A stretch of 64,000 nt of DNA. Origin: a virus (lineage: Duplodnaviria; Heunggongvirae; Uroviricota; Caudoviricetes). Both the position numbers and the translations under genes were made by a program. The stretch lies in IMG/VR virus record IMGVR_UViG_2778261533_000001, positions 1 to 64,000 of that record. One strand, 5' to 3'. Shown piece by piece: positions 19 to 58,762 of this stretch (its first letter is position 1; every line of letters begins with the position of its first letter). The notes beneath the pieces were generated by a model that did no database searches, was not told the DNA's origin, and was given only the letters and a program-made list of their open reading frames with translations.

Positions 19-408
19 TTACCTGGTGTTAACGTTGCGGGTAATCAGAATACATCCGGTAACCGCGAGTTTCATCTCACCATATAACTGCTGGCAGATA
101 GCTGGATTGCTGAATACATCCAAAGGTTCACACTCAAACAGCGGTGCAATCTGCATGAGGTCCATCATGGTCATACCTGGGGTACGAGCGGTAATGAATC
201 TGCGCATGCCAGTATCCATTGTTCGCCAGATAGCTACACCATGCTTTTTGCTCACTTCTTCAGTAAAGCCAAGGTGGCACATGATGGTTTTTTCGATAGC
301 CAGATCAGAGATAGAAACCTTTTCGCCAGGTACACCATCATTATTGATGGTCACTTCGACACTCTGACCATTACGCAGGCGGTATTGAATTGCTTTAGTA
401 TTTTCCAC
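19..408 (-). CDS. hypothetical protein (129 aa)
   Basis: ORF track; same strand as and directly downstream of the 415..1092 gene; no recognisable motif. Confidence 0.35.
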   Translation of the reverse strand: MENTKAIQYRLRNGQSVEVTINNDGVPGEKVSISDLAIEKTIMCHLGFTEEVSKKHGVAIWRTMDTGMRRFITARTPGMTMMDLMQIAPLFECEPLDVFSNPAICQQLYGEMKLAVTGCILITRNVNTR

Positions 409-414
409 GTTAAA

Positions 415-1092
415 TCACTCCACTACAAACCAGTCACATGCCAGTAAGTCGCCTACAGAAGGAACCCACGGAACAACTACACCTTGTGCATTTTTTAAGG
501 CGAAATAAGCACCATACGGAACGAGGTCGCCGGGGAAATATCCCTTAATGGCTTCCATTCGTGCCGGGTACTGTCCTTCAGGAACCAGCCAGCAGAATTG
601 GTTTTCGCCGTTCCACCCGCGTCGGGCAACTTTCTTGCCATCCTTCAGCCACATCAGCGCGTCAGAAAAGTCGGCTGCTTCAAGGTCGATTTCTTCTTGT
701 AGAGTAGCGATACCGCCAGCAGAAATAGTTACGTCCCTGGCTGTAATGAATGTCACCCCATTGTGACCTTCAATGCTGAGCGATACCCCATTTTCGAAGA
801 AGTCGTTAGTCCGACTAAAGCCTTCTTCAAATGTTTTTTCTGGTGAATAGGACAGAGATCCGTCCTCATAAGCGACCAGATATCCGCCAATTTCTGGTCG
901 GTGTTTTTGCAAAAATATTTTATCAACATGGACTTTTACCCCTTCTGGCTCAACGACTTCGATGTTGCAAAAAAGGACCACATCCATTAGGGCGATAATT
1001 TCGATATCTTTGATTTTTGAGGCGCGAACTGTTTTATGGCTTTTGTATTTTGGAAGTGCCGTCAAAAGCTCTTTCGTTGTCATGTTATTCAT
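415..1092 (-). CDS. hypothetical protein with C-terminal DUF2829 (Tad2-like) domain
   Basis: ORF 415..1260 trimmed to ATG at 1090-1092 preceded by GAGGAAA RBS; C-terminus KDGKKVARRGWNGENQFCWLVPEG...DLLACDWFVVE resembles the DUF2829 signature. Confidence 0.5.
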   Translation of the reverse strand: MNNMTTKELLTALPKYKSHKTVRASKIKDIEIIALMDVVLFCNIEVVEPEGVKVHVDKIFLQKHRPEIGGYLVAYEDGSLSYSPEKTFEEGFSRTNDFFENGVSLSIEGHNGVTFITARDVTISAGGIATLQEEIDLEAADFSDALMWLKDGKKVARRGWNGENQFCWLVPEGQYPARMEAIKGYFPGDLVPYGAYFALKNAQGVVVPWVPSVGDLLACDWFVVE

Positions 1093-1289
1093 AGTCTTTC
1101 CTCTGCTTAAAACCTGATGTATTGCGCCTTCAGGTGGGTCAGGAATGTTTTCCCACCAGCGAACGCAATATCTCGGGGTGTTCTTTTCGTGAAAAGCGCG
1201 TGCCATTGCCAACTTTGGCGTTTGTTTGCGAGTTCGTGCTTTTGTCGGCGTCTGGACCACCGCTTTTCTTTCAGTCGTTTTTTACACAT

Positions 1290-1778
1290 TCAAAACGGAA
1301 TATCGTCGTCAAAGTCCATTGGAGGTTCGTTATTGGCGTTGCTCTGAGGTTTACCGCCACCACTGTATTGCTGGTGGTTTTGAGGTTGGTTTGATTGCCC
1401 CCAGCCATTTGAGGACTGTGAATCGTCACGGCGAGCGCCGATCATTTGCATGGTGCCGCCCTGGCTGACGATAATTTCCGTCGTGTAACGTTCTACACCG
1501 GCGTCATCTGTCCACTTACGGGTTTTAAGTTTCCCTTCGATGTAGACCTGAGAACCTTTTCGTAAATACTCACTCGCAATTTCAGCAAGTTTTCCGAACA
1601 AAACGACTTTATGCCATTCTGTTTGCTCTTTCTGTTGGCCCGTTTGCTTGGCGCGCCATGATTCATTCGTTGCGATGCTGAGTCTTCCGACCGCTCCGCC
1701 ATTTGGTATATACCTGATCTCCGGGTCTTGCCCCAGGGTACCAATCAGGATGACTTTGTTTACACCGCGTTGTGCCAC
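1290..1778 (-). CDS. ssb: single-stranded DNA-binding protein
   Basis: Near-collinear with E. coli SSB: N-terminal OB fold ([18 protein letters not shown]...[15 protein letters not shown]), Gly/Gln-rich linker, acidic tail DFDDDIPF. Confidence 0.92.
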
Positions 1779-1947
1779 TTATCTTACCTAATAAAATAAA
1801 TTAATTAGAGCAATAATGTATATCTTTGAAACGTGGCTAACAAGTGATTTGCATTATCCTGTGCCTTCTAAAGGGATCGAGTCAGTCGGTATTGGCGGTG
1901 AATGAGTGTTTGTCCTGGAGCGTAAAAAATTCGCTTATGAGGTCTTT

Positions 1948-2505
1948 ATGAAGGGAAAAACAGCCGCAGGAGGCGGTGCAATTTGCGCTATCGCGGTGAT
2001 GATTACCATCGTGATGGGTAATGGCAATGTGCGAACCAACCAGGCGGGGCTTGAGCTGATTGGTAACGCTGAAGGTTGCCGACGTGATCCATACATGTGC
2101 CCGGCAGGGGTATGGACTGACGGGATCGGTAATACACACGGGGTAACGCCGGGTGTGCGAAAAACCGACCAGCAAATCGCCGCTGATTGGGAAAAGAATA
2201 TCCTGATCGCTGAACGCTGTATTAATCAGCACTTCCGGGGCAAAGACATGCCCGATAATGCCTTCAGTGCAATGACAAGCGCGGCATTCAATATGGGATG
2301 CAATAGCTTACGGACCTACTACAGCAAAGCGCGAGGCATGCGAGTAGAAACGTCCATCCACAAGTGGGCGCAGAAAGGGGAATGGGTGAATATGTGTAAC
2401 CATCTCCCTGATTTCGTGAACAGTAACGGCGTGCCCCTGCGAGGTTTAAAGATTCGCCGTGAAAAAGAACGCCAGCTTTGCCTGACGGGGCTTGTCAATG
2501 AATAA
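1948..2505 (+). CDS. lyz: SAR endolysin (P1 Lyz-type lysozyme, 185 aa)
   Basis: Starts MKGKTAAGGGAICAIAVMITIVMG (signal-anchor-release segment) followed by a T4-lysozyme-like catalytic region; ORF 1906..2505 trimmed to internal ATG. Confidence 0.9.
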   Translation: MKGKTAAGGGAICAIAVMITIVMGNGNVRTNQAGLELIGNAEGCRRDPYMCPAGVWTDGIGNTHGVTPGVRKTDQQIAADWEKNILIAERCINQHFRGKDMPDNAFSAMTSAAFNMGCNSLRTYYSKARGMRVETSIHKWAQKGEWVNMCNHLPDFVNSNGVPLRGLKIRREKERQLCLTGLVNE

Positions 2506-2796: not shown

Positions 2797-5527
<2,731 letters not shown>

Positions 5528-5594
5528 TTAATTAGAATAATTCGCATCGTGTTTGAACGGAAATTTAACACTAGTCACTTGTTAAGGATTACCA

Positions 5595-8500
5595 ATGAAC
5601 AAGCTATCTATGGGGGTGTTTCGCTGTTCAAGTGTCAGCGAAATATTGAAATACATTAGGGCAATAACATCTCACCGAGCGCCGATTAAATACGGCGTGG
5701 AAAAGGTGGAAGGCAAAAGCTATGACCGACTGCGCCGTGAGGCGAATCAGAAGGCGATAGATTTGCTTAATTCGCTGGTGGACGGCGCGACACTGACAGA
5801 TGAACAGCGCCAGATCCTGGCTGGGTACACCGGTGAAGGCGGCATTGGCGGGTCCGTCTCCGAATATTACACACCAAAGCCGATCGCTGAAGGTGTCTGG
5901 GAGATCATGAAGCTCTACGGCGCGGACGTAGGTAACACTCTGGAACCATCGGCGGGAACCGGCGTTTTTAATGAGACAAAACCGGTTGGTACGGTGATGA
6001 CCGCGACTGAGATCAGCAGTGTTTCCGGTCGTATAAACCAGCTGTTGCACCCGGAAGACAGCGTACAGATTTCTCCGTTCGAACAACTGGCTGTAAGCAC
6101 GCCTAACGATTCATTCGACCATGTTGTGGGTAACGTTCCGTTCGGTGGTCGTGATAACACACGCAACATCGATAAGCCTTACGCAGAAGAAACGGACATG
6201 GGTTCTTACTTCATGCTCCGCATGCTGGACAAGATAAAGCCAGGCGGATTCATGTGCGTGATTGTGCCGCCGTCCATTGTTTCAGGTTCAAACATGAAGC
6301 GGTTACGCCTGCGCCTATCACGGAAAGCTGAATTTCTTGGTGCCCACCGCTTGCCTACCGGTACTTTTGACGCAAACGGGACCAGTACAGTTGTTGATGT
6401 GGTGCTGATGCGCAAACATCCGGCAGAGATGGCTGAGAAAATCCCCCTGGTGGATGAAAGCACTCTCGAATCGGCAAATGTGCTTTGGCCAACGTTTATT
6501 TCTGGCAAGTGGTTTGAAAAGGACGGCCGCCGGTTTGTTCATGGCACCCAGGAAAAGGGCTTCCAGGGGCGTATTGAGGTTCGTGCCGACGGTCAGATTG
6601 ATAACCAGGCTCTTAAAGCGAAGCTGATTCATCGTTTCGAAAGCCGTATCGACTGGTCTTTGCTCGATATGGCTGAACCGTCACCGACCGCAGACGTTGT
6701 TGGTGAAGGGGAAATGCGCCTGATTAATGGCGTATGGCAAAAATATGCTGGTGGTCGCTGGATTGAAGCTGATGCCGGGAAGGAACTTAAGATCGATGCT
6801 GCCAGTTATGGCGCGGATAGCTGGGAGGCTCTTCAGCGTAACCTGACTACAACAGAAGGCCGTCTCGGCATGACATTTACCCAGATGGCAAATGTCCGCG
6901 ATAAGTACACCACATCAATCAGCGACGATATGGTGCAGCTGGTGGACTGGATTAACAGCCAGCCTGAAAAATACCGTGAACGCTTGTATCGCGGGGCGAT
7001 GATTGGCCGGATGTTAATTGAATATCAGGACATGAAGGCCGCCGGGCATAGTGCTGAACAAATCGAACAGCAGCGCCTTTCTCTGGTATCCCGTTTGCAG
7101 GCAGAGATTGACCGTTTTGGTAACCCCGGTCGCGGTCCGATAGCGAAATTGTCGGGGAGCGGTGCGCGCGCCTGGTTTGCTTTCCGTGGTGCAATTAAGC
7201 TGGATGGCACTATTTCTGACGAGCTGACAGGGAAGCTGGTTACGCATGATTCCAGCGCAAGTTATGACTCCACCAGCTATCAGGACACCCTGCGTTATCT
7301 CTATAGCGATCTCACCCGCGATCCAATCCAGCTCGATGATTTCCGCCTTGCGTTTACCGGCGAACTGCCAGCCAGTGATGAAGAGTTGCTTAATTTATTG
7401 GCCAGCACCCCTGGTATTGCGGTTTCACCGTATGGCGGGATTGTTCCGTTCGCCCGCGCCACCAGCGGCGACATTAACGAGATAGTGGCTCCAAAACAGG
7501 AATTCCTCGCCACACTCCCCGACGGTCCAGTAAAGAACAACGTCCTTAATCAGCTGGCAGCTATCGAAGAGAAGCGCATCAAGACGCCAGCAGAGAATAT
7601 CCGGTTTAAGCTCAATAGCCGTTGGTTCGACCGTTCCGTCATTCTGGAATTTTTGCAGGAAAACGGCTATCCGGATCTGCGCTATGTGCAGTCAGTGCAG
7701 CTGGAAGGCGACGAAATGGTTTCTGACACCTATCACGGTGGTGATGGTCTGTTCGTCGGGCACCGATACGGTGTCGTCCAGCGCAAGGATAAAGAAACAG
7801 GTGAGATTCGCTACGAGTGGGACCGTAAATCAGGTGAAAACGCGACCGGGTTCCCGGCACAGCTGGAAAAGTATCTCAATGGTGCGCGTATCGGTGGCAA
7901 AGATAGCGCGACGGCGAACGGCTACCGCGAGCAGATGGCACTGCTTGAGGACCAGTTCAATAAGTGGATCAAGACGCACGATCGCTACGATGAGCTGGTT
8001 GCCAAATACAACGATGTGTTCAATAGCAATATCCCGTATGAACACTCTGGCGATCCGCTTGGGTTGAAGGGATTAAGCGGTAAGCGCCAGCCATTTGATT
8101 ACCAGAATAGCGAGGTGCGCCGACTGTCCGAAGATGGGCGCGGCATCCTGGGCTTCGGCACCGGGCTGGGTAAAACCACGACCGCGCTGGCGCTTGAGGC
8201 GTTCAACTATGAGAACGGTCGCTCCACCCGTACTGCGTATGTAGTGCCTAAATCAGTGCTGGAAAACTGGTATTACGAAGCAAAAGAATTCCTGAGTGAA
8301 GAGGCATTCAGTAACTACCTGTTCGTCGGTCTTGATGTGCTGATGGATGGCGATCAGATTCGCCAGGTGCAGGTGCTCGATGAGAACGGTAAACCTGTTC
8401 TTGGTACTGATGGCACTCCAGTTATGCGCGATGCTCTTAAGCTGGCAGATGAAGCCACTATCACGGCGCGGATGAACGCGATCCCGCACTCAAATTACCG

Positions 8501-11500
8501 TGCAGTCGTGTTTACCAAAGAACAATACGCCCGCATTCCGCTACGTGATGACACCGTAGATGAGCATGCACAGGATATGCTTTATGACTTCGTTGCCGCC
8601 GGACGCGTAGCCAGCGCAATGGACTCCGACTCCCACCGCAAAGAGGCCGCGCGTCGCCGGGTATTGTCGGAGTATTCAGATACCGGCACCGAAAAAGCAG
8701 AGAAGTATCCGTACTTTGAGGATATGGGCTTCGATAGTGTGATCGCTGACGAAGGTCACAACTACCGCAATAGCTATAAAAATGGTCGCGAAGCGTCACA
8801 ACTGGCCTATCTGCCCACCAGCGCGGTGGCGCAATCGGCGCGAGATATGGCAATTAAAAACGCGTACCTGATGAAAAAGAATGGCGGGCGCGGGCCGGTT
8901 CTCCTGACTGCAACGCCAGTCGTTAACACCCCGATCGATGCATACAACATGCTTTCTCATGTTCTGCCGAAGGAATACTGGCAGAACATGGGGATCTACG
9001 GTCCTGATGACTTCGTTAAATTCTTCGGTAAGACCAGGCTGGAAACGGTACAGAAAATCAGCGGTGAAGTTGAAGAAAAAATGGCGCTGGTGGGCTTTGA
9101 AAACCTTGATGCGCTGCGCGGTATATTCCATCGCTGGGTAACGCTTAAAACGGCGGAAGACGTTAAGGATACCGTGGAGATCCCGGAGCTGGACGAACAC
9201 CAGCAGGATGCACCACTTACTGAAGAACAACTGGCGGCGTATGAAGAATTGCGTCAGCAGGCGGAAGCGGCGGCAAAAGCCAACAATGGCGTAACGACCT
9301 CGGTCAATGAAGACGGCGTGATTGAGCACGAGAAAGCCCGTCCGATCTTCTCAATAATCAGGGATATGGACCGCGTATGTACTGACATGGACCTGTACTA
9401 TCGCCGGATCACCTATCGTTTCCTGCCGGAGTATGCCGATGCGGTGCAGCAGCTGGCGGACAGTTTGCCTAAACAAGCCACCAGCGAAGACGACGACAGT
9501 GATGATTCAATCACGCAGCAATCGCAATACTCCCTGATAGATAAGGGCGAGTTTATTCAGTTGCAGGTTCCGGAAGCGTTCGAGCAGGAAGTGAATAAGC
9601 GCCTGGCCAGGTTTGGCATTGACGAACAGACCGTAACTCACCCCGTTACGCCCAAATACGCGAAGCTGATCGCCACGCTGAAGGAGTTTTTCCCGGAAGG
9701 TAAGCAAATCATCTTCACCGATGAAAAAACGCAGCACCAGAAGCTCAAGCGCATTATCTGCAATGCTCTAAACCTTGAACCTTCAAAGGTGGGGATCCTG
9801 AATGCTCAGACGGTTGCCGAGGCAGGTAAAACCGGTAAGAAACTGAAAGCGGTTAAACCGCCGAAAGAGCTACCGGATGAACCAACAGATGCACAGATAG
9901 CGAAATACAACGAGCAAATGGCTCTGTATGACGCCTATATCGCGCAGCAAAATGAAATGTCGTTGGGCGGTCTGGAAAAGATTGCAGCCGACTTCCAGGA
10001 GGGCCGGACTCCGATCATCATCTGCAACAAAAAGGCAGAGGTGGGTATCAACCTGCATCGAGGAACGACGGATATCCACCACCTGACGTTGCCGTGGACA
10101 CCAGCCAGTATCGCACAGCGTAACGGTCGCGGTGCCCGAGTTGGTTCCAACCGTGCAAGCGTTCGCGTTCACTACTACTGCGGCAAGGGGTCTTTCGATG
10201 AATACCGACTGAAGACGCTGAAGCGTAAAGCAGGCTGGATCTCCGATATCCTCCGTTCAGATAAGTCAGAAATGGAGAACGCCGACGCCAATGACATGAT
10301 CGAAATGCAGATGTATACCGCGAAGGATGACGGCGAACGTCTGGCAATGATGCAGGTTCAAATGGATAAGGCGAAAGCTGCGAAACGCGCTCGCCAGAAA
10401 GAACAGGCTACTATCGACCTTCAGAACTACATCAAGGCGCAGCACGCAGCTGGCGAGGATGTGGAGGTACTTACCGCTGAATTAGAACGAAGCAAAGCGG
10501 AACTTGAAAAGACCACCGCCGAGGTAGCTAAATTCAAACAGGCGGCAATGGCCAAGGCAGCGGATAACGCAGACTGGAAGGCCCGCTGGGGGAGTGTCCA
10601 TCACACAGACCGTATGTTGTTAGCACAGTATCGCGCGTCGTTGAAAAGCGCCATTCAGCGCAAGGCTAATATCTCTCAGGCCATCTCCCGCTATGAGAAA
10701 TTATTGAACCGTACTCAGAAGGCCGCGACGGATATCAAACGCCTGCGCCCGATGGTGGAGGATGCAATAAATAAAGGCATTCTGGATGTTGATCCTGATC
10801 TGGTTAACCATGCGAATGAGTTCCTTGTTATCGGCGATCGCTCATGGCGTGTAGGCCAATACTACGATTGTGCCGGTGATATCGTTCGCATTAAGTCGCT
10901 GGACTTCGACAGCCAGCGCGCAGACGTGGAGATCATCTTTACCTTCAAAGGCACCAAATCGGGTAACTGGGATGTGAAGACGCTGGATAAACAGGTTGAT
11001 GTAACTCCCGATGAAGATGCTGTTATGCAGAAAATCAGTGGTGGCGTCTCCATCGCCGGGATTAACGACATCATTTCCTGTGACGATTTCTACCGTTTCC
11101 AGCAGCGCGGCATGATCAAAATCACTGACTCATACGGCGTTCAGACTACAGAGTCAGGCTATAGCATTGATTTTGTTGGTACCTATACGGCCCCACTGAA
11201 GCATGCGGTTTACCCGGATCGCCGTGACGGCGCGCTGAAGTCGTCAATTGCAAAATGGGTGCTTGGTATGATGTCGGAAGGGAATAACCGCCAGATCCGT
11301 TCGGCAGAAACATTCCTGGTTGAATTGTTTGGCTCCAATTATGGCGATGTAATCGCGTCATACGGAGATACGCTATCCCCTGAAGCAATTCAGGAGAAAA
11401 TAGTGGATGCGATCGCAAAAATGCCGGAGAAAACAAGCCAGGGGGCTACTCGTAACGGGGATTCTGAACTTGAGGTCACCAATGCCATTTTCGGTACCCA

Positions 11501-12362
11501 TGAGTTCCGGGCGTCAGATTATGAGATCACCACAGCACAGTTTGGCACTATTGGCATTTACAGCAATAAAGCCGAGATCAAGCAGGCAATGGACGCAGCA
11601 AGCGCGCGCATCGCAGCAGAACGGGAAGCCAATCTGAATCATGCAGTCGCCGCACTGACTCAATCGTGGGTAACAGCAATCAGGGAGGCCGCCACCACAG
11701 GGAAAATCACACCTGCAATTGCGGATGTCGTAAACGACGGCTCTAAATTTATGGATGCCTATCAAATGGATGCGGTGCAGTTGCCATCAGCCTATGGCCA
11801 ACTCAGCTATCGCATGACCTACAACCTGGTATCAATGTTTTCCGACCTTGCCATCCTTGGGCTGGTGGACCTTAACGAGGTTACGCCGGAATTGCTCAGC
11901 ATGCGCAAGAATCATGTGGAGATATTGCACAGAATTAACACGGTACTTTCCGGGCGCACCGATGAAGAGAAACAGGCCGACGCTGATCGGATAAACCTGG
12001 CCCTTGGCAACATCACGGAGGAAGAAATTGCCGCCAGAAACGAGAAACAAGAAGAGTTATCATCAATACAGGGTGATGCCACCAGCATAGCTCAGTCTCT
12101 TGGTCTGAATTATCGCGTATCCACCGCCGATCTGAAGATGATGTACGCACCAAAATTCGCCGCTGGCGAGGTATTTGGGCTTCAGGAAGCCTCAGGCATG
12201 AAAGGCGTTCTTTTCCGTGCGAAAGACGCAATCAAGGCGAAATTCGGCGCTCGCTGGCTGCCAGCGAAGGCGAAGAACAGCGATTTCCCGGGTAACTGGT
12301 GGATTATCGAGACAAAACACAACGTGGCGGACGTTCTGGCCGTCATCCAACAATACGCATAA
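5595..12362 (+). CDS. darB: DarB antirestriction protein, N6-adenine methyltransferase-helicase fusion (2255 aa)
   Basis: 2255-aa ORF; N-terminal MTase motif HVVGNVPFGG; helicase Walker A GFGTGLGKTT and DEGH box VIADEGHNYRN; length matches P1 DarB. Confidence 0.9.
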   Translation: MNKLSMGVFRCSSVSEILKYIRAITSHRAPIKYGVEKVEGKSYDRLRREANQKAIDLLNSLVDGATLTDEQRQILAGYTGEGGIGGSVSEYYTPKPIAEGVWEIMKLYGADVGNTLEPSAGTGVFNETKPVGTVMTATEISSVSGRINQLLHPEDSVQISPFEQLAVSTPNDSFDHVVGNVPFGGRDNTRNIDKPYAEETDMGSYFMLRMLDKIKPGGFMCVIVPPSIVSGSNMKRLRLRLSRKAEFLGAHRLPTGTFDANGTSTVVDVVLMRKHPAEMAEKIPLVDESTLESANVLWPTFISGKWFEKDGRRFVHGTQEKGFQGRIEVRADGQIDNQALKAKLIHRFESRIDWSLLDMAEPSPTADVVGEGEMRLINGVWQKYAGGRWIEADAGKELKIDAASYGADSWEALQRNLTTTEGRLGMTFTQMANVRDKYTTSISDDMVQLVDWINSQPEKYRERLYRGAMIGRMLIEYQDMKAAGHSAEQIEQQRLSLVSRLQAEIDRFGNPGRGPIAKLSGSGARAWFAFRGAIKLDGTISDELTGKLVTHDSSASYDSTSYQDTLRYLYSDLTRDPIQLDDFRLAFTGELPASDEELLNLLASTPGIAVSPYGGIVPFARATSGDINEIVAPKQEFLATLPDGPVKNNVLNQLAAIEEKRIKTPAENIRFKLNSRWFDRSVILEFLQENGYPDLRYVQSVQLEGDEMVSDTYHGGDGLFVGHRYGVVQRKDKETGEIRYEWDRKSGENATGFPAQLEKYLNGARIGGKDSATANGYREQMALLEDQFNKWIKTHDRYDELVAKYNDVFNSNIPYEHSGDPLGLKGLSGKRQPFDYQNSEVRRLSEDGRGILGFGTGLGKTTTALALEAFNYENGRSTRTAYVVPKSVLENWYYEAKEFLSEEAFSNYLFVGLDVLMDGDQIRQVQVLDENGKPVLGTDGTPVMRDALKLADEATITARMNAIPHSNYRAVVFTKEQYARIPLRDDTVDEHAQDMLYDFVAAGRVASAMDSDSHRKEAARRRVLSEYSDTGTEKAEKYPYFEDMGFDSVIADEGHNYRNSYKNGREASQLAYLPTSAVAQSARDMAIKNAYLMKKNGGRGPVLLTATPVVNTPIDAYNMLSHVLPKEYWQNMGIYGPDDFVKFFGKTRLETVQKISGEVEEKMALVGFENLDALRGIFHRWVTLKTAEDVKDTVEIPELDEHQQDAPLTEEQLAAYEELRQQAEAAAKANNGVTTSVNEDGVIEHEKARPIFSIIRDMDRVCTDMDLYYRRITYRFLPEYADAVQQLADSLPKQATSEDDDSDDSITQQSQYSLIDKGEFIQLQVPEAFEQEVNKRLARFGIDEQTVTHPVTPKYAKLIATLKEFFPEGKQIIFTDEKTQHQKLKRIICNALNLEPSKVGILNAQTVAEAGKTGKKLKAVKPPKELPDEPTDAQIAKYNEQMALYDAYIAQQNEMSLGGLEKIAADFQEGRTPIIICNKKAEVGINLHRGTTDIHHLTLPWTPASIAQRNGRGARVGSNRASVRVHYYCGKGSFDEYRLKTLKRKAGWISDILRSDKSEMENADANDMIEMQMYTAKDDGERLAMMQVQMDKAKAAKRARQKEQATIDLQNYIKAQHAAGEDVEVLTAELERSKAELEKTTAEVAKFKQAAMAKAADNADWKARWGSVHHTDRMLLAQYRASLKSAIQRKANISQAISRYEKLLNRTQKAATDIKRLRPMVEDAINKGILDVDPDLVNHANEFLVIGDRSWRVGQYYDCAGDIVRIKSLDFDSQRADVEIIFTFKGTKSGNWDVKTLDKQVDVTPDEDAVMQKISGGVSIAGINDIISCDDFYRFQQRGMIKITDSYGVQTTESGYSIDFVGTYTAPLKHAVYPDRRDGALKSSIAKWVLGMMSEGNNRQIRSAETFLVELFGSNYGDVIASYGDTLSPEAIQEKIVDAIAKMPEKTSQGATRNGDSELEVTNAIFGTHEFRASDYEITTAQFGTIGIYSNKAEIKQAMDAASARIAAEREANLNHAVAALTQSWVTAIREAATTGKITPAIADVVNDGSKFMDAYQMDAVQLPSAYGQLSYRMTYNLVSMFSDLAILGLVDLNEVTPELLSMRKNHVEILHRINTVLSGRTDEEKQADADRINLALGNITEEEIAARNEKQEELSSIQGDATSIAQSLGLNYRVSTADLKMMYAPKFAAGEVFGLQEASGMKGVLFRAKDAIKAKFGARWLPAKAKNSDFPGNWWIIETKHNVADVLAVIQQYA

Positions 12363-58640: not shown

Positions 58641-58762
58641 CTCCCCTCCTCCCGAAAAAAATAAAAAAATTGCTTGTCACGAGAAAGTCAACAAGTGACT
58701 TTCAATAAAATCTCTTCCGAAAAGGGATTCACACAAGTGCCTTGTGTTTAAGGAAGAGTAAA

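Follow-up and report, generated by a model that had tools for sequence, protein, structure and literature searches.

We analyzed a window of 64,000 nucleotides (positions 1 to 64,000 of the IMG/VR virus record IMGVR_UViG_2778261533_000001) and here describe a gene near its start, on the minus strand at 415..1092, whose 225-residue product joins an N-terminal OB-fold module related to the phage L protein Dec to a C-terminal domain of the Tad2 sponge family. The window is from a P1-like phage-plasmid: its open reading frame (ORF) map shows ssb, lyz, pro, prt and a 2,255-residue darB, and megablast matches of 98-99% link it to Salmonella phage SJ46, Escherichia phage vB_EcoM-Ro157c2YLVW, RCS47 and P1. 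The gene and its parts, in window coordinates, are as follows.

415..1092, minus strand: coding sequence of the 225-residue OB-spacer-Tad2 protein (hereafter the window protein), from the translation, with the stop codon at 415-417.
418..687, minus strand: Tad2 (PF11195) sponge domain, residues 136-225; its pocket-aligned residues are W160, N161, L199, N201, Q203, V207, W209, S212, G214 and D215.
688..807, minus strand: spacer, residues 96-135, beta-rich and fibre-like (NGVSLSIEGHNGVTFITARDVTISAGGI), ending in the conserved joint EEIDLEAADF.
808..1092, minus strand: N-terminal OB-fold domain, residues 1-95, homologous to the Dec OB domain and the RyR Tad N-domain.
1099..1103, minus strand: Shine-Dalgarno sequence GAGGA, 6 nucleotides before the ATG at 1092, read from the sequence.

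By sequence, fold and pocket residues, the C-terminal ~85 residues are a true Tad2/DUF2829 domain. The Pfam family PF11195 ('Tad2-like') matches residues 141-224 over model positions 2-73 of 73 (E=1.6e-22; 80.2 bits, with a gathering cut-off of 25 bits), and a sequence search of the PDB with the window protein retrieved ModTad2, also called MoTad2 (9EIB, 8V3E; E ~6e-20), as well as SptTad2, AcrIIA7/HgmTad2 (E=4e-10) and SPO1 Tad2 (E=7e-9). A search of NCBIfam found no family for the protein, and PHROGs returned only families of 'unknown function'. In an AlphaFold2 monomer model built on 50 homologs, the predicted local distance difference test score (pLDDT) is ~90 across most of the Tad2 domain and 65-79 in its insertion loop (residues 171-190), and the modeled domain shows the elements of the Tad2 fold, namely alpha1, a beta sheet with an insertion after beta2, and a C-terminal alpha3 and beta strand. 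Foldseek places ModTad2 with bound histidine-ADP-ribose (His-ADPR) at the top of its matches (E=8.9e-9, 46% identity) and recovers 24 Tad2 chains at E<=1.4e-5.

The ligand pocket is likewise retained. SPO1 Tad2 contacts 1''-3' glycocyclic ADP-ribose (gcADPR) through W25, N26, W73, S76 and D79, in addition to I63, T65, D67, H71 and T78. In HgmTad2 the conserved pocket residues are W21/N22 and S90/T92/D93. The first five SPO1 residues, which are the core contacts, map to W160, N161, W209, S212 and D215 and are all conserved, while the remainder map to L199, N201, Q203, V207 and G214, the glycine standing at the position of SPO1 T78 (HgmTad2 T92) as it does in Tad2_68. At all ten positions the window protein is identical to Tad2_68, which is active. 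The resulting pocket string, WNLNQVWSGD, is found unchanged in 29 of 50 homologs; others have variants, WKLDQSWSDD among them, and this variation suggests diversifying ligand specificity. An earlier note on this DNA had proposed a C-terminal DUF2829/Tad2 domain, quoting residues that are indeed found in the translation (KDGKKVARRGWNGENQFCWLVPEG... and ...DLLACDWFVVE), and had named a Foldseek comparison with Tad2 structures and the conservation of the nucleotide-binding pocket as checks; the Pfam score, the first rank of ModTad2 and the conserved pocket all bear the proposal out.

Among Tad2 proteins that have been characterized, Tad2_68 (an 87-residue IMG/VR metagenomic protein; Hadary et al. 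2025, bioRxiv 10.1101/2025.08.24.671296) is 68% identical over 82 residues and shares the type of insertion loop (…YPARMEA.KG.F..D.VPY.AYFALKNAQG.VVPW…) together with the ten pocket positions, although it stands alone whereas the window protein carries 135 extra N-terminal residues. Tad2_68 was positive on types I and II Thoeris and negative on type IV Thoeris, two CBASS and two Pycsar systems (bioRxiv 10.1101/2025.08.24.671296, Table S2). MoTad2, from a Myroides odoratus prophage, is 45% identical, lacks the N-terminal domain and differs at four of the ten pocket-aligned residues (N201/T, Q203/D, V207/A, G214/S); it sequesters His-ADPR, plus cyclic UMP and CMP (cUMP/cCMP) at a second site, and does not inhibit type I Thoeris. 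The window protein falls in the MoTad2/His-ADPR clade, with ModTad2 as its best PDB match and an insertion that aligns without gaps to those of both ModTad2 and Tad2_68. SPO1 Tad2 (gp34.65; 8SME/F/G) and HgmTad2/AcrIIA7 (8KBI-M) have the same fold and keep the gcADPR-contacting W-N and W..S..D motifs, but are only 33-36% identical to the window protein and have another insertion loop; HgmTad2 binds cyclic dinucleotides through its long insertion.

The N-terminal part had been described in the earlier note as an uncharacterized, fused domain of ~140 residues. A fused N-terminal part of ~135 residues is present; rather than an uncharacterized domain, it is a Dec-like OB-fold followed by a fibre-like spacer, it belongs to a large phage family, and it is a widespread module that stands ahead of several unrelated sponge domains. 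The AlphaFold2 model contains an N-terminal beta-rich domain (block-mean pLDDT 81-93 over residues 11-90), for which the sole significant non-Tad2 match in Foldseek is phage L Dec (6E3C; E=1.5e-3, 26% identity over 95 columns). A profile hidden Markov model compared with Dec gave E=3.6e-6 for the full alignment, 1.6e-4 for the OB domain alone and 2.1e-6 for the OB domain and spacer, and the last of these alignments extends into Dec residues 92-121, where the trimeric stalk of Dec begins. The window protein and Dec share the motif PE.GGYL....G.L.Y.S...FE..Y, and the N-terminal domain accordingly has the Dec type of OB-fold. The spacer of ~40 residues that aligns to Dec 92-121 has pLDDT <50 in the monomer model (residues 97-135), and in homologs it is replaced by helical or short linkers. 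Dec itself is a late structural trimer on P22-like capsids and has no Tad2 domain, whereas the window gene belongs to an early operon and P1-type virions can do without it. Two other identities for the N-terminal domain were rejected: Lockin, a hexameric cog-like family that is absent from sequenced phages, and Acb4 (PF13876), to which there was no Pfam match at E<=1.

We searched an OB profile seeded with the window protein against 1.84 billion representative proteins and obtained 5,052 proteins at E<=1e-3, of which 2,687 also passed E<=1e-10; most have 81-160 residues, and none of them has a Pfam family for the OB part. The motif of the module, LP.YK.HK.V.A..I … P..GGYLV.Y.DG..SYSP…FE.GY, is present at the N-terminus of the window protein, and the near-invariant columns of the family are polar and aromatic (H, K, GGY, Y, DGY, S, SP, FE, GY). 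Fusion statistics were drawn from the 144 best non-giant representatives, of which 55 consist of the OB domain only, 55 carry an unassigned extension and 34 carry a recognized sponge. The only recurrent Pfam partners (at least two members) are Tad2 (19), Sequestin PF21825 (17), Acb4 PF13876 (3) and the Acb2/Tad1 hairpin (2), and in all 34 recognized sponge fusions the OB domain comes first, as it does in the window protein. Sequestin is a sponge for 3' cyclic ADP-ribose (3'cADPR) that was found through its fusions to Tad2 and Acb4, the latter corresponding to PF13876 (Tal et al. 2025, bioRxiv 10.1101/2025.07.12.664507). A full-text literature search that joined OB-fold, sponge and Thoeris gave no result.

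A fifth sponge partner is provided by RyR Tad (gp68 of Pectobacterium phage CB1; bioRxiv 10.64898/2026.06.04.730250), whose N-domain scores 31.7 bits against the OB family profile. Similarly to the window protein, RyR Tad has a small N-terminal beta domain of this family followed by a C-terminal sponge, and its gene occupies a hot spot for accessory genes, close to those for replication and SSB; it differs in that the sponge is an all-helical RyR-repeat domain, not Tad2, and in that the N-domain is shortened to ~68 residues. RyR Tad is dimeric, and its N-domain forms a strand-swapped dimer that alone is inactive against type I Thoeris (bioRxiv 10.64898/2026.06.04.730250). Sponge-sponge fusions, including Acb4-Tad2 of Pm86, Tad2-Sequestin and Acb4-Sequestin of Ab09 gp59, also place modules on flexible linkers within a single polypeptide, and in relatives of the window protein a Sequestin domain follows at the C-terminus, giving OB-Tad2-Sequestin; both modules of the sponge-sponge fusions are proven sponges, unlike the OB module that comes first in the window protein.

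Stand-alone members of the OB family were inspected at four genes on metagenomic contigs, which are too short to say much. One of them, encoding 91 residues, lies 9 nucleotides upstream of a 76-residue Acb2/Tad1-hairpin gene (contig L012, 148-662), and this pair resembles an OB-sponge fusion split into two genes. Other stand-alone members that were inspected, on these contigs and elsewhere, lie among small early or DNA-metabolism genes and not in structural modules. The OB profile also matched five giant proteins of 3,700-4,600 residues (P0121, P0122, P0125, P0130 and P0228), each in 8-28 short stretches centered on GGYLV…DG…Y; these may be repeats with no more than a resemblance to the motif.

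The limits of the gene follow from several lines of evidence. The mechanical ORF reaches back to a GTG at 1260 (281 residues), the kind of start used in the P1 'isaA' annotation; we dropped it in favor of the ATG at 1092, which is preceded by the Shine-Dalgarno sequence, matches the equivalent methionine at which divergent homologs begin and agrees with the RefSeq models. RefSeq has a gene of identical length (678 nucleotides) in Ro157c2YLVW and p12579_1, labelled 'DUF2829 domain-containing protein', and the 100%-identical 225-residue protein is a database cluster of the same name with 453 member sequences (P0001). The 56-codon leader that runs from the GTG at 1260 (window 1093-1260; P1 locus 4354-4525) precedes the Tad2 gene here and isaA in P1. 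It is in frame with both of these different genes, which suggests that this leader is not coding.

Comparison with P1 settles how the gene relates to that phage, for which two further features are needed.

405..1088, no strand: 684-nucleotide cassette absent from P1, from blastn of the window against P1 and the junction sequences.
19..408, minus strand: downstream isaA-like gene, orthologous to P1 isaA and beginning with a GTG at 408, from translation, blastn and a match to phrog_2326 (E=2.8e-64).

In blastn, window positions 58-404 correspond to positions 4001-4347 of the P1 locus and window positions 1089-2500 to 4354-5764 of that locus, so that the P1 flanks are only 6 nucleotides apart. 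Translation from the shared ATG at 1092 gives the Tad2 protein in the window and 'MTAQNTKTIQY…' in P1, the latter being the ortholog of the 'MENTKAIQY…' that begins here at the GTG at 408. P1 IsaA aligns from residue 57 onwards to the downstream ORF, P1 isaB is unrelated, and the IS1 of P1 sits beyond isaA, between isaA and isaB. The suggestion in the earlier note that the gene corresponds to P1 isaA or isaB, interrupted by IS1, therefore fails: blastn and translation rule out both identities, since P1 lacks 405-1088, isaA is the next gene and IS1 lies beyond it. The P1 annotation of a 320-residue IsaA from the upstream GTG probably over-extends that gene by the common leader.

In the RCS47 locus (1737-2956), an IS26 at the border of the resistance region cuts off the orthologous gene after ~150 codons, with loss of the Tad2 domain; this insertion and the IS1 in P1 together define a hot spot for insertions downstream of ssb. 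The isaA-like gene, which encodes 260 residues when intact, always follows the DUF2829 gene in P1-group and D6-group elements; its product found no Pfam or PDB relative on search, and the gene may belong to the same module as a further accessory or anti-defence component. In the window it is shortened to 129 residues by a breakpoint at 57/58. Positions 1-57 are not collinear with any related element and match a tail-fibre gene of P1-like plasmids (100% identity, 80 records), the 57/58 junction is absent from all PLSDB records, and hxr and ddrB, the usual next genes, have no match anywhere in the 64 kb; the junction may reflect a deletion or rearrangement, or else a join made in assembly.

Upstream of the gene, the window contains the following features.

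1093..1289, minus strand: 197-nucleotide spacer between ssb and the gene, the same leader as in P1 (98.7% identity).
1290..1778, minus strand: ssb, the first gene of the transcription unit, from the ORF list and annotations of relatives.
1781-1808, minus strand: P1ssb promoter, an exact string match to the annotated P1 feature.
1798-1814, minus strand: C1 repressor operator Ossb/Op21, overlapping P1ssb and identical to the annotated P1 feature.
1906-2505, plus strand: lyz, from the ORF list.
5595-12362: darB, 2,255 residues, from the ORF list.

A sigma-70 and terminator scan of positions 1-2000 found no terminator-like or promoter-like site on the minus strand, the stretch between ssb and the gene included. 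We also searched the window for the P1 late-promoter pattern (AAGTGAYT-N5-TANNNT), allowing one mismatch at most, and none of the nine sites found lies on the minus strand upstream near the gene. On these scans a late promoter for the Tad2 gene was rejected, as were a promoter and terminator of its own. Because Ossb and P1ssb are intact, no terminator-like site intervenes and no late-promoter motif lies upstream, we infer that the Tad2 gene follows ssb as the second member of its operon and, by analogy with P1, would be expected to be transcribed early and under C1 control together with ssb. The earlier note had placed the gene next to ssb in an early region; ssb does lie directly upstream on the same strand, in a transcription unit whose C1 operator and promoter are exactly kept. 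The nine late-promoter sites in the window compare with 1.9 expected by chance, and the exact matches (1842-1860, 5562-5580, 39005-39023 and 58693-58711) mark LPlyz, LPpro and further late promoters.

To describe the distribution of the gene, we surveyed plasmid and genome collections. In PLSDB, 455 plasmid records match the region and 110 of them contain the full cassette, P1-type records matching the flanks only. Of 5,426 complete E. coli genomes, 213 (~4%) have the gene, at 213 places on plasmids and 7 on chromosomes. Among phage-plasmids, a DefenseFinder survey reports 'Tad2 AcrIIA7 (anti-Thoeris)' in 56% of those in the P1 group and 93% of those in the D6 group (bioRxiv 10.1101/2025.09.12.675607). 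P1-family versions of the protein are mosaics built from five types of N-domain, two of spacer and three alleles of the Tad2 insertion loop, which meet at a conserved EIDLEAADFSDALMWLK junction; most combinations are seen, all six pairs of spacer and allele occur with the commonest N-domain type, and the loop alleles recombine freely with N-domain and spacer types. There are at least three loop alleles, a PEGQYPARMEAIKGYFPGD type, a longer PDKQGASRLTPIKHA…ELEINF type and a short LAGSVNLH type, the last of which also turns the GWNG motif into EWKG. In D6-group elements the related gene adjoins dut. Some D6-like elements fuse the Tad2 domain in frame to dUTPase (PF00692 and PF11195; P0056, 241 residues), while in others dut and the DUF2829 gene are separate neighbors and the annotated 167-residue product begins within the OB domain.

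Collectively, these data point to a cytoplasmic, early-expressed anti-defence protein of two modules, whose Tad2 part probably sequesters Thoeris signals. Residues 136-225 would act as a sponge of the MoTad2/Tad2_68 clade and, by analogy with the solved Tad2 structures, would assemble into a homotetramer with pockets at the protomer interfaces. The likeliest ligands, judged from its relatives, would be His-ADPR, the signal of type II Thoeris, and 3'cADPR (1''-3' gcADPR), the signal of type I Thoeris, both made by TIR proteins. Transcription with ssb from the C1-repressed promoter would begin once repression is absent, on infection or induction, and sequestration of the signal would then leave the Thoeris effector inactive, so that the phage-plasmid could replicate. 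The OB domain and spacer would form an accessory module, the leading ideas being that they drive or strengthen oligomerization, as in RyR Tad, or contribute a second anti-defence activity. N-terminal extensions and fusions of sponges are functional in published work (HgmTad2, Acb4-Tad2 and RyR Tad), and the fusion seen here is therefore compatible with sponge function. The earlier note had called the gene a candidate anti-defence factor, and a candidate anti-Thoeris sponge is its best reading by sequence, fold, pocket and early context.

Several observations weigh against this interpretation. The largest functional survey, that of Hadary et al. (2025, bioRxiv 10.1101/2025.08.24.671296), was deliberately restricted to Tad2 proteins without a domain like 6E3C (Dec) or PF21825. 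Ligand specificity varies between close Tad2 homologs, MoTad2 acting on type II Thoeris and Pycsar and not on type I, and Tad2_68 on types I and II. The part of Dec to which the spacer aligns forms trimers, which is awkward for a Tad2 tetramer; the AlphaFold2 model is monomeric, with a predicted template modelling score of 0.42; and the timing of expression is taken from the annotation of P1.

That the Tad2 domain binds some other signal, whether the cyclic dinucleotides of CBASS through its insertion loop, the cUMP or cCMP of Pycsar, or the N7-cADPR of type IV Thoeris, appears unlikely; the phage-plasmid would then be directed against a different E. coli system. Tad2 homologs do bind cGG and 3'3'-cGAMP through the insertion between beta2 and beta5, MoTad2 takes up cUMP and cCMP as well, Tad2_71 binds N7-cADPR, and the insertion loop, with its three or more alleles, is the most variable segment in the P1 family; however, the negative results of Tad2_68 on CBASS, Pycsar and type IV Thoeris come from a protein with the same loop type that is positive on types I and II, and the residues aligned with the ADPR pocket are fully conserved between the two. 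A place in the virion, with OB legs on the capsid, the spacer as a trimeric stalk and DUF2829 at the tip for extracellular binding, would account for the homology of the N-terminal ~120 residues to Dec (including the start of the stalk), for a spacer that is unfolded in the monomer model as the Dec C-terminus is in solution, for the automatic annotation of some relatives as 'capsid decoration protein' and for a tail-fibre repeat in one homolog (P0023). We nevertheless consider a decoration or fibre-like protein very unlikely. The window gene lacks the late or structural context of Dec-type decoration proteins, since it belongs to the ssb operon under C1 control and its strand shows no late-promoter motif upstream, and P1 and many relatives build virions without it. 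Moreover, the fusion partners of the OB domain are cytoplasmic sponges, the inspected stand-alone OB genes lie outside structural modules, the N-domain of the same kind in RyR Tad is a swapped dimer in a soluble sponge, and Tad2 ligands are intracellular.

It is also highly improbable that the OB module carries the main activity in the host, for example against a different defence, with Tad2 as a passenger from module shuffling. The OB family is far larger than its fusions, mostly stand-alone and strongly conserved in its polar and aromatic motif, and OB types shuffle independently of Tad2 alleles, but the Tad2 domain is highly conserved with its pocket intact in most P1-family alleles, D6-group elements keep Tad2 joined to other N-termini including dUTPase, and the sole OB-like domain to have been tested, that of RyR Tad, had no detectable activity against type I Thoeris. 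An anti-CRISPR function like that of AcrIIA7, the earliest function put forward for a DUF2829 protein, is scarcely credible, as AcrIIA7 was later shown to be a sponge for gcADPR and cyclic dinucleotides (HgmTad2) and its binding of Cas9 was never shown. To our knowledge, type II-A CRISPR-Cas is not carried by E. coli and Salmonella, which also counts against this function. A related proposal, which keeps the Tad2 domain as a Thoeris sponge, is that the OB domain itself is an anti-defence module, for example a further sponge family or an inhibitor of some other signal or system. We propose this because the domain has a very wide stand-alone distribution and its identifiable fusion partners are sponges, and regard it as conceivable but rather doubtful; the window protein would then be a dual inhibitor, the stand-alone OB proteins of ~85-95 residues, which number in the thousands in phage genomes, a large, unrecognized counter-defence class, and Dec a capsid-binding offshoot.

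The gene is already flagged as a member of the Tad2 family by RefSeq, UniRef and DefenseFinder-type annotation; what is new here is the corrected relation to P1 isaA, the occurrence of the Dec-like OB module across at least five sponge families and the mosaic alleles. As is typical of an arms race, the locus shuffles its OB types, spacer types and Tad2 loop alleles. Guilt-by-fusion uncovered Sequestin, and the same logic singles out the OB family, whose members mostly stand alone and otherwise include fusions to five unrelated sponge families, as a first choice when screening for function. P1-like phage-plasmids occur commonly among pathogenic E. coli, Shigella and Salmonella, and P1 is the classic transducing phage, of which the laboratory form lacks the cassette. 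If the Tad2 sponge works, it would be an easily testable, E. coli-native anti-Thoeris protein and would help to explain differences in host range between P1 and its wild relatives on Thoeris strains.

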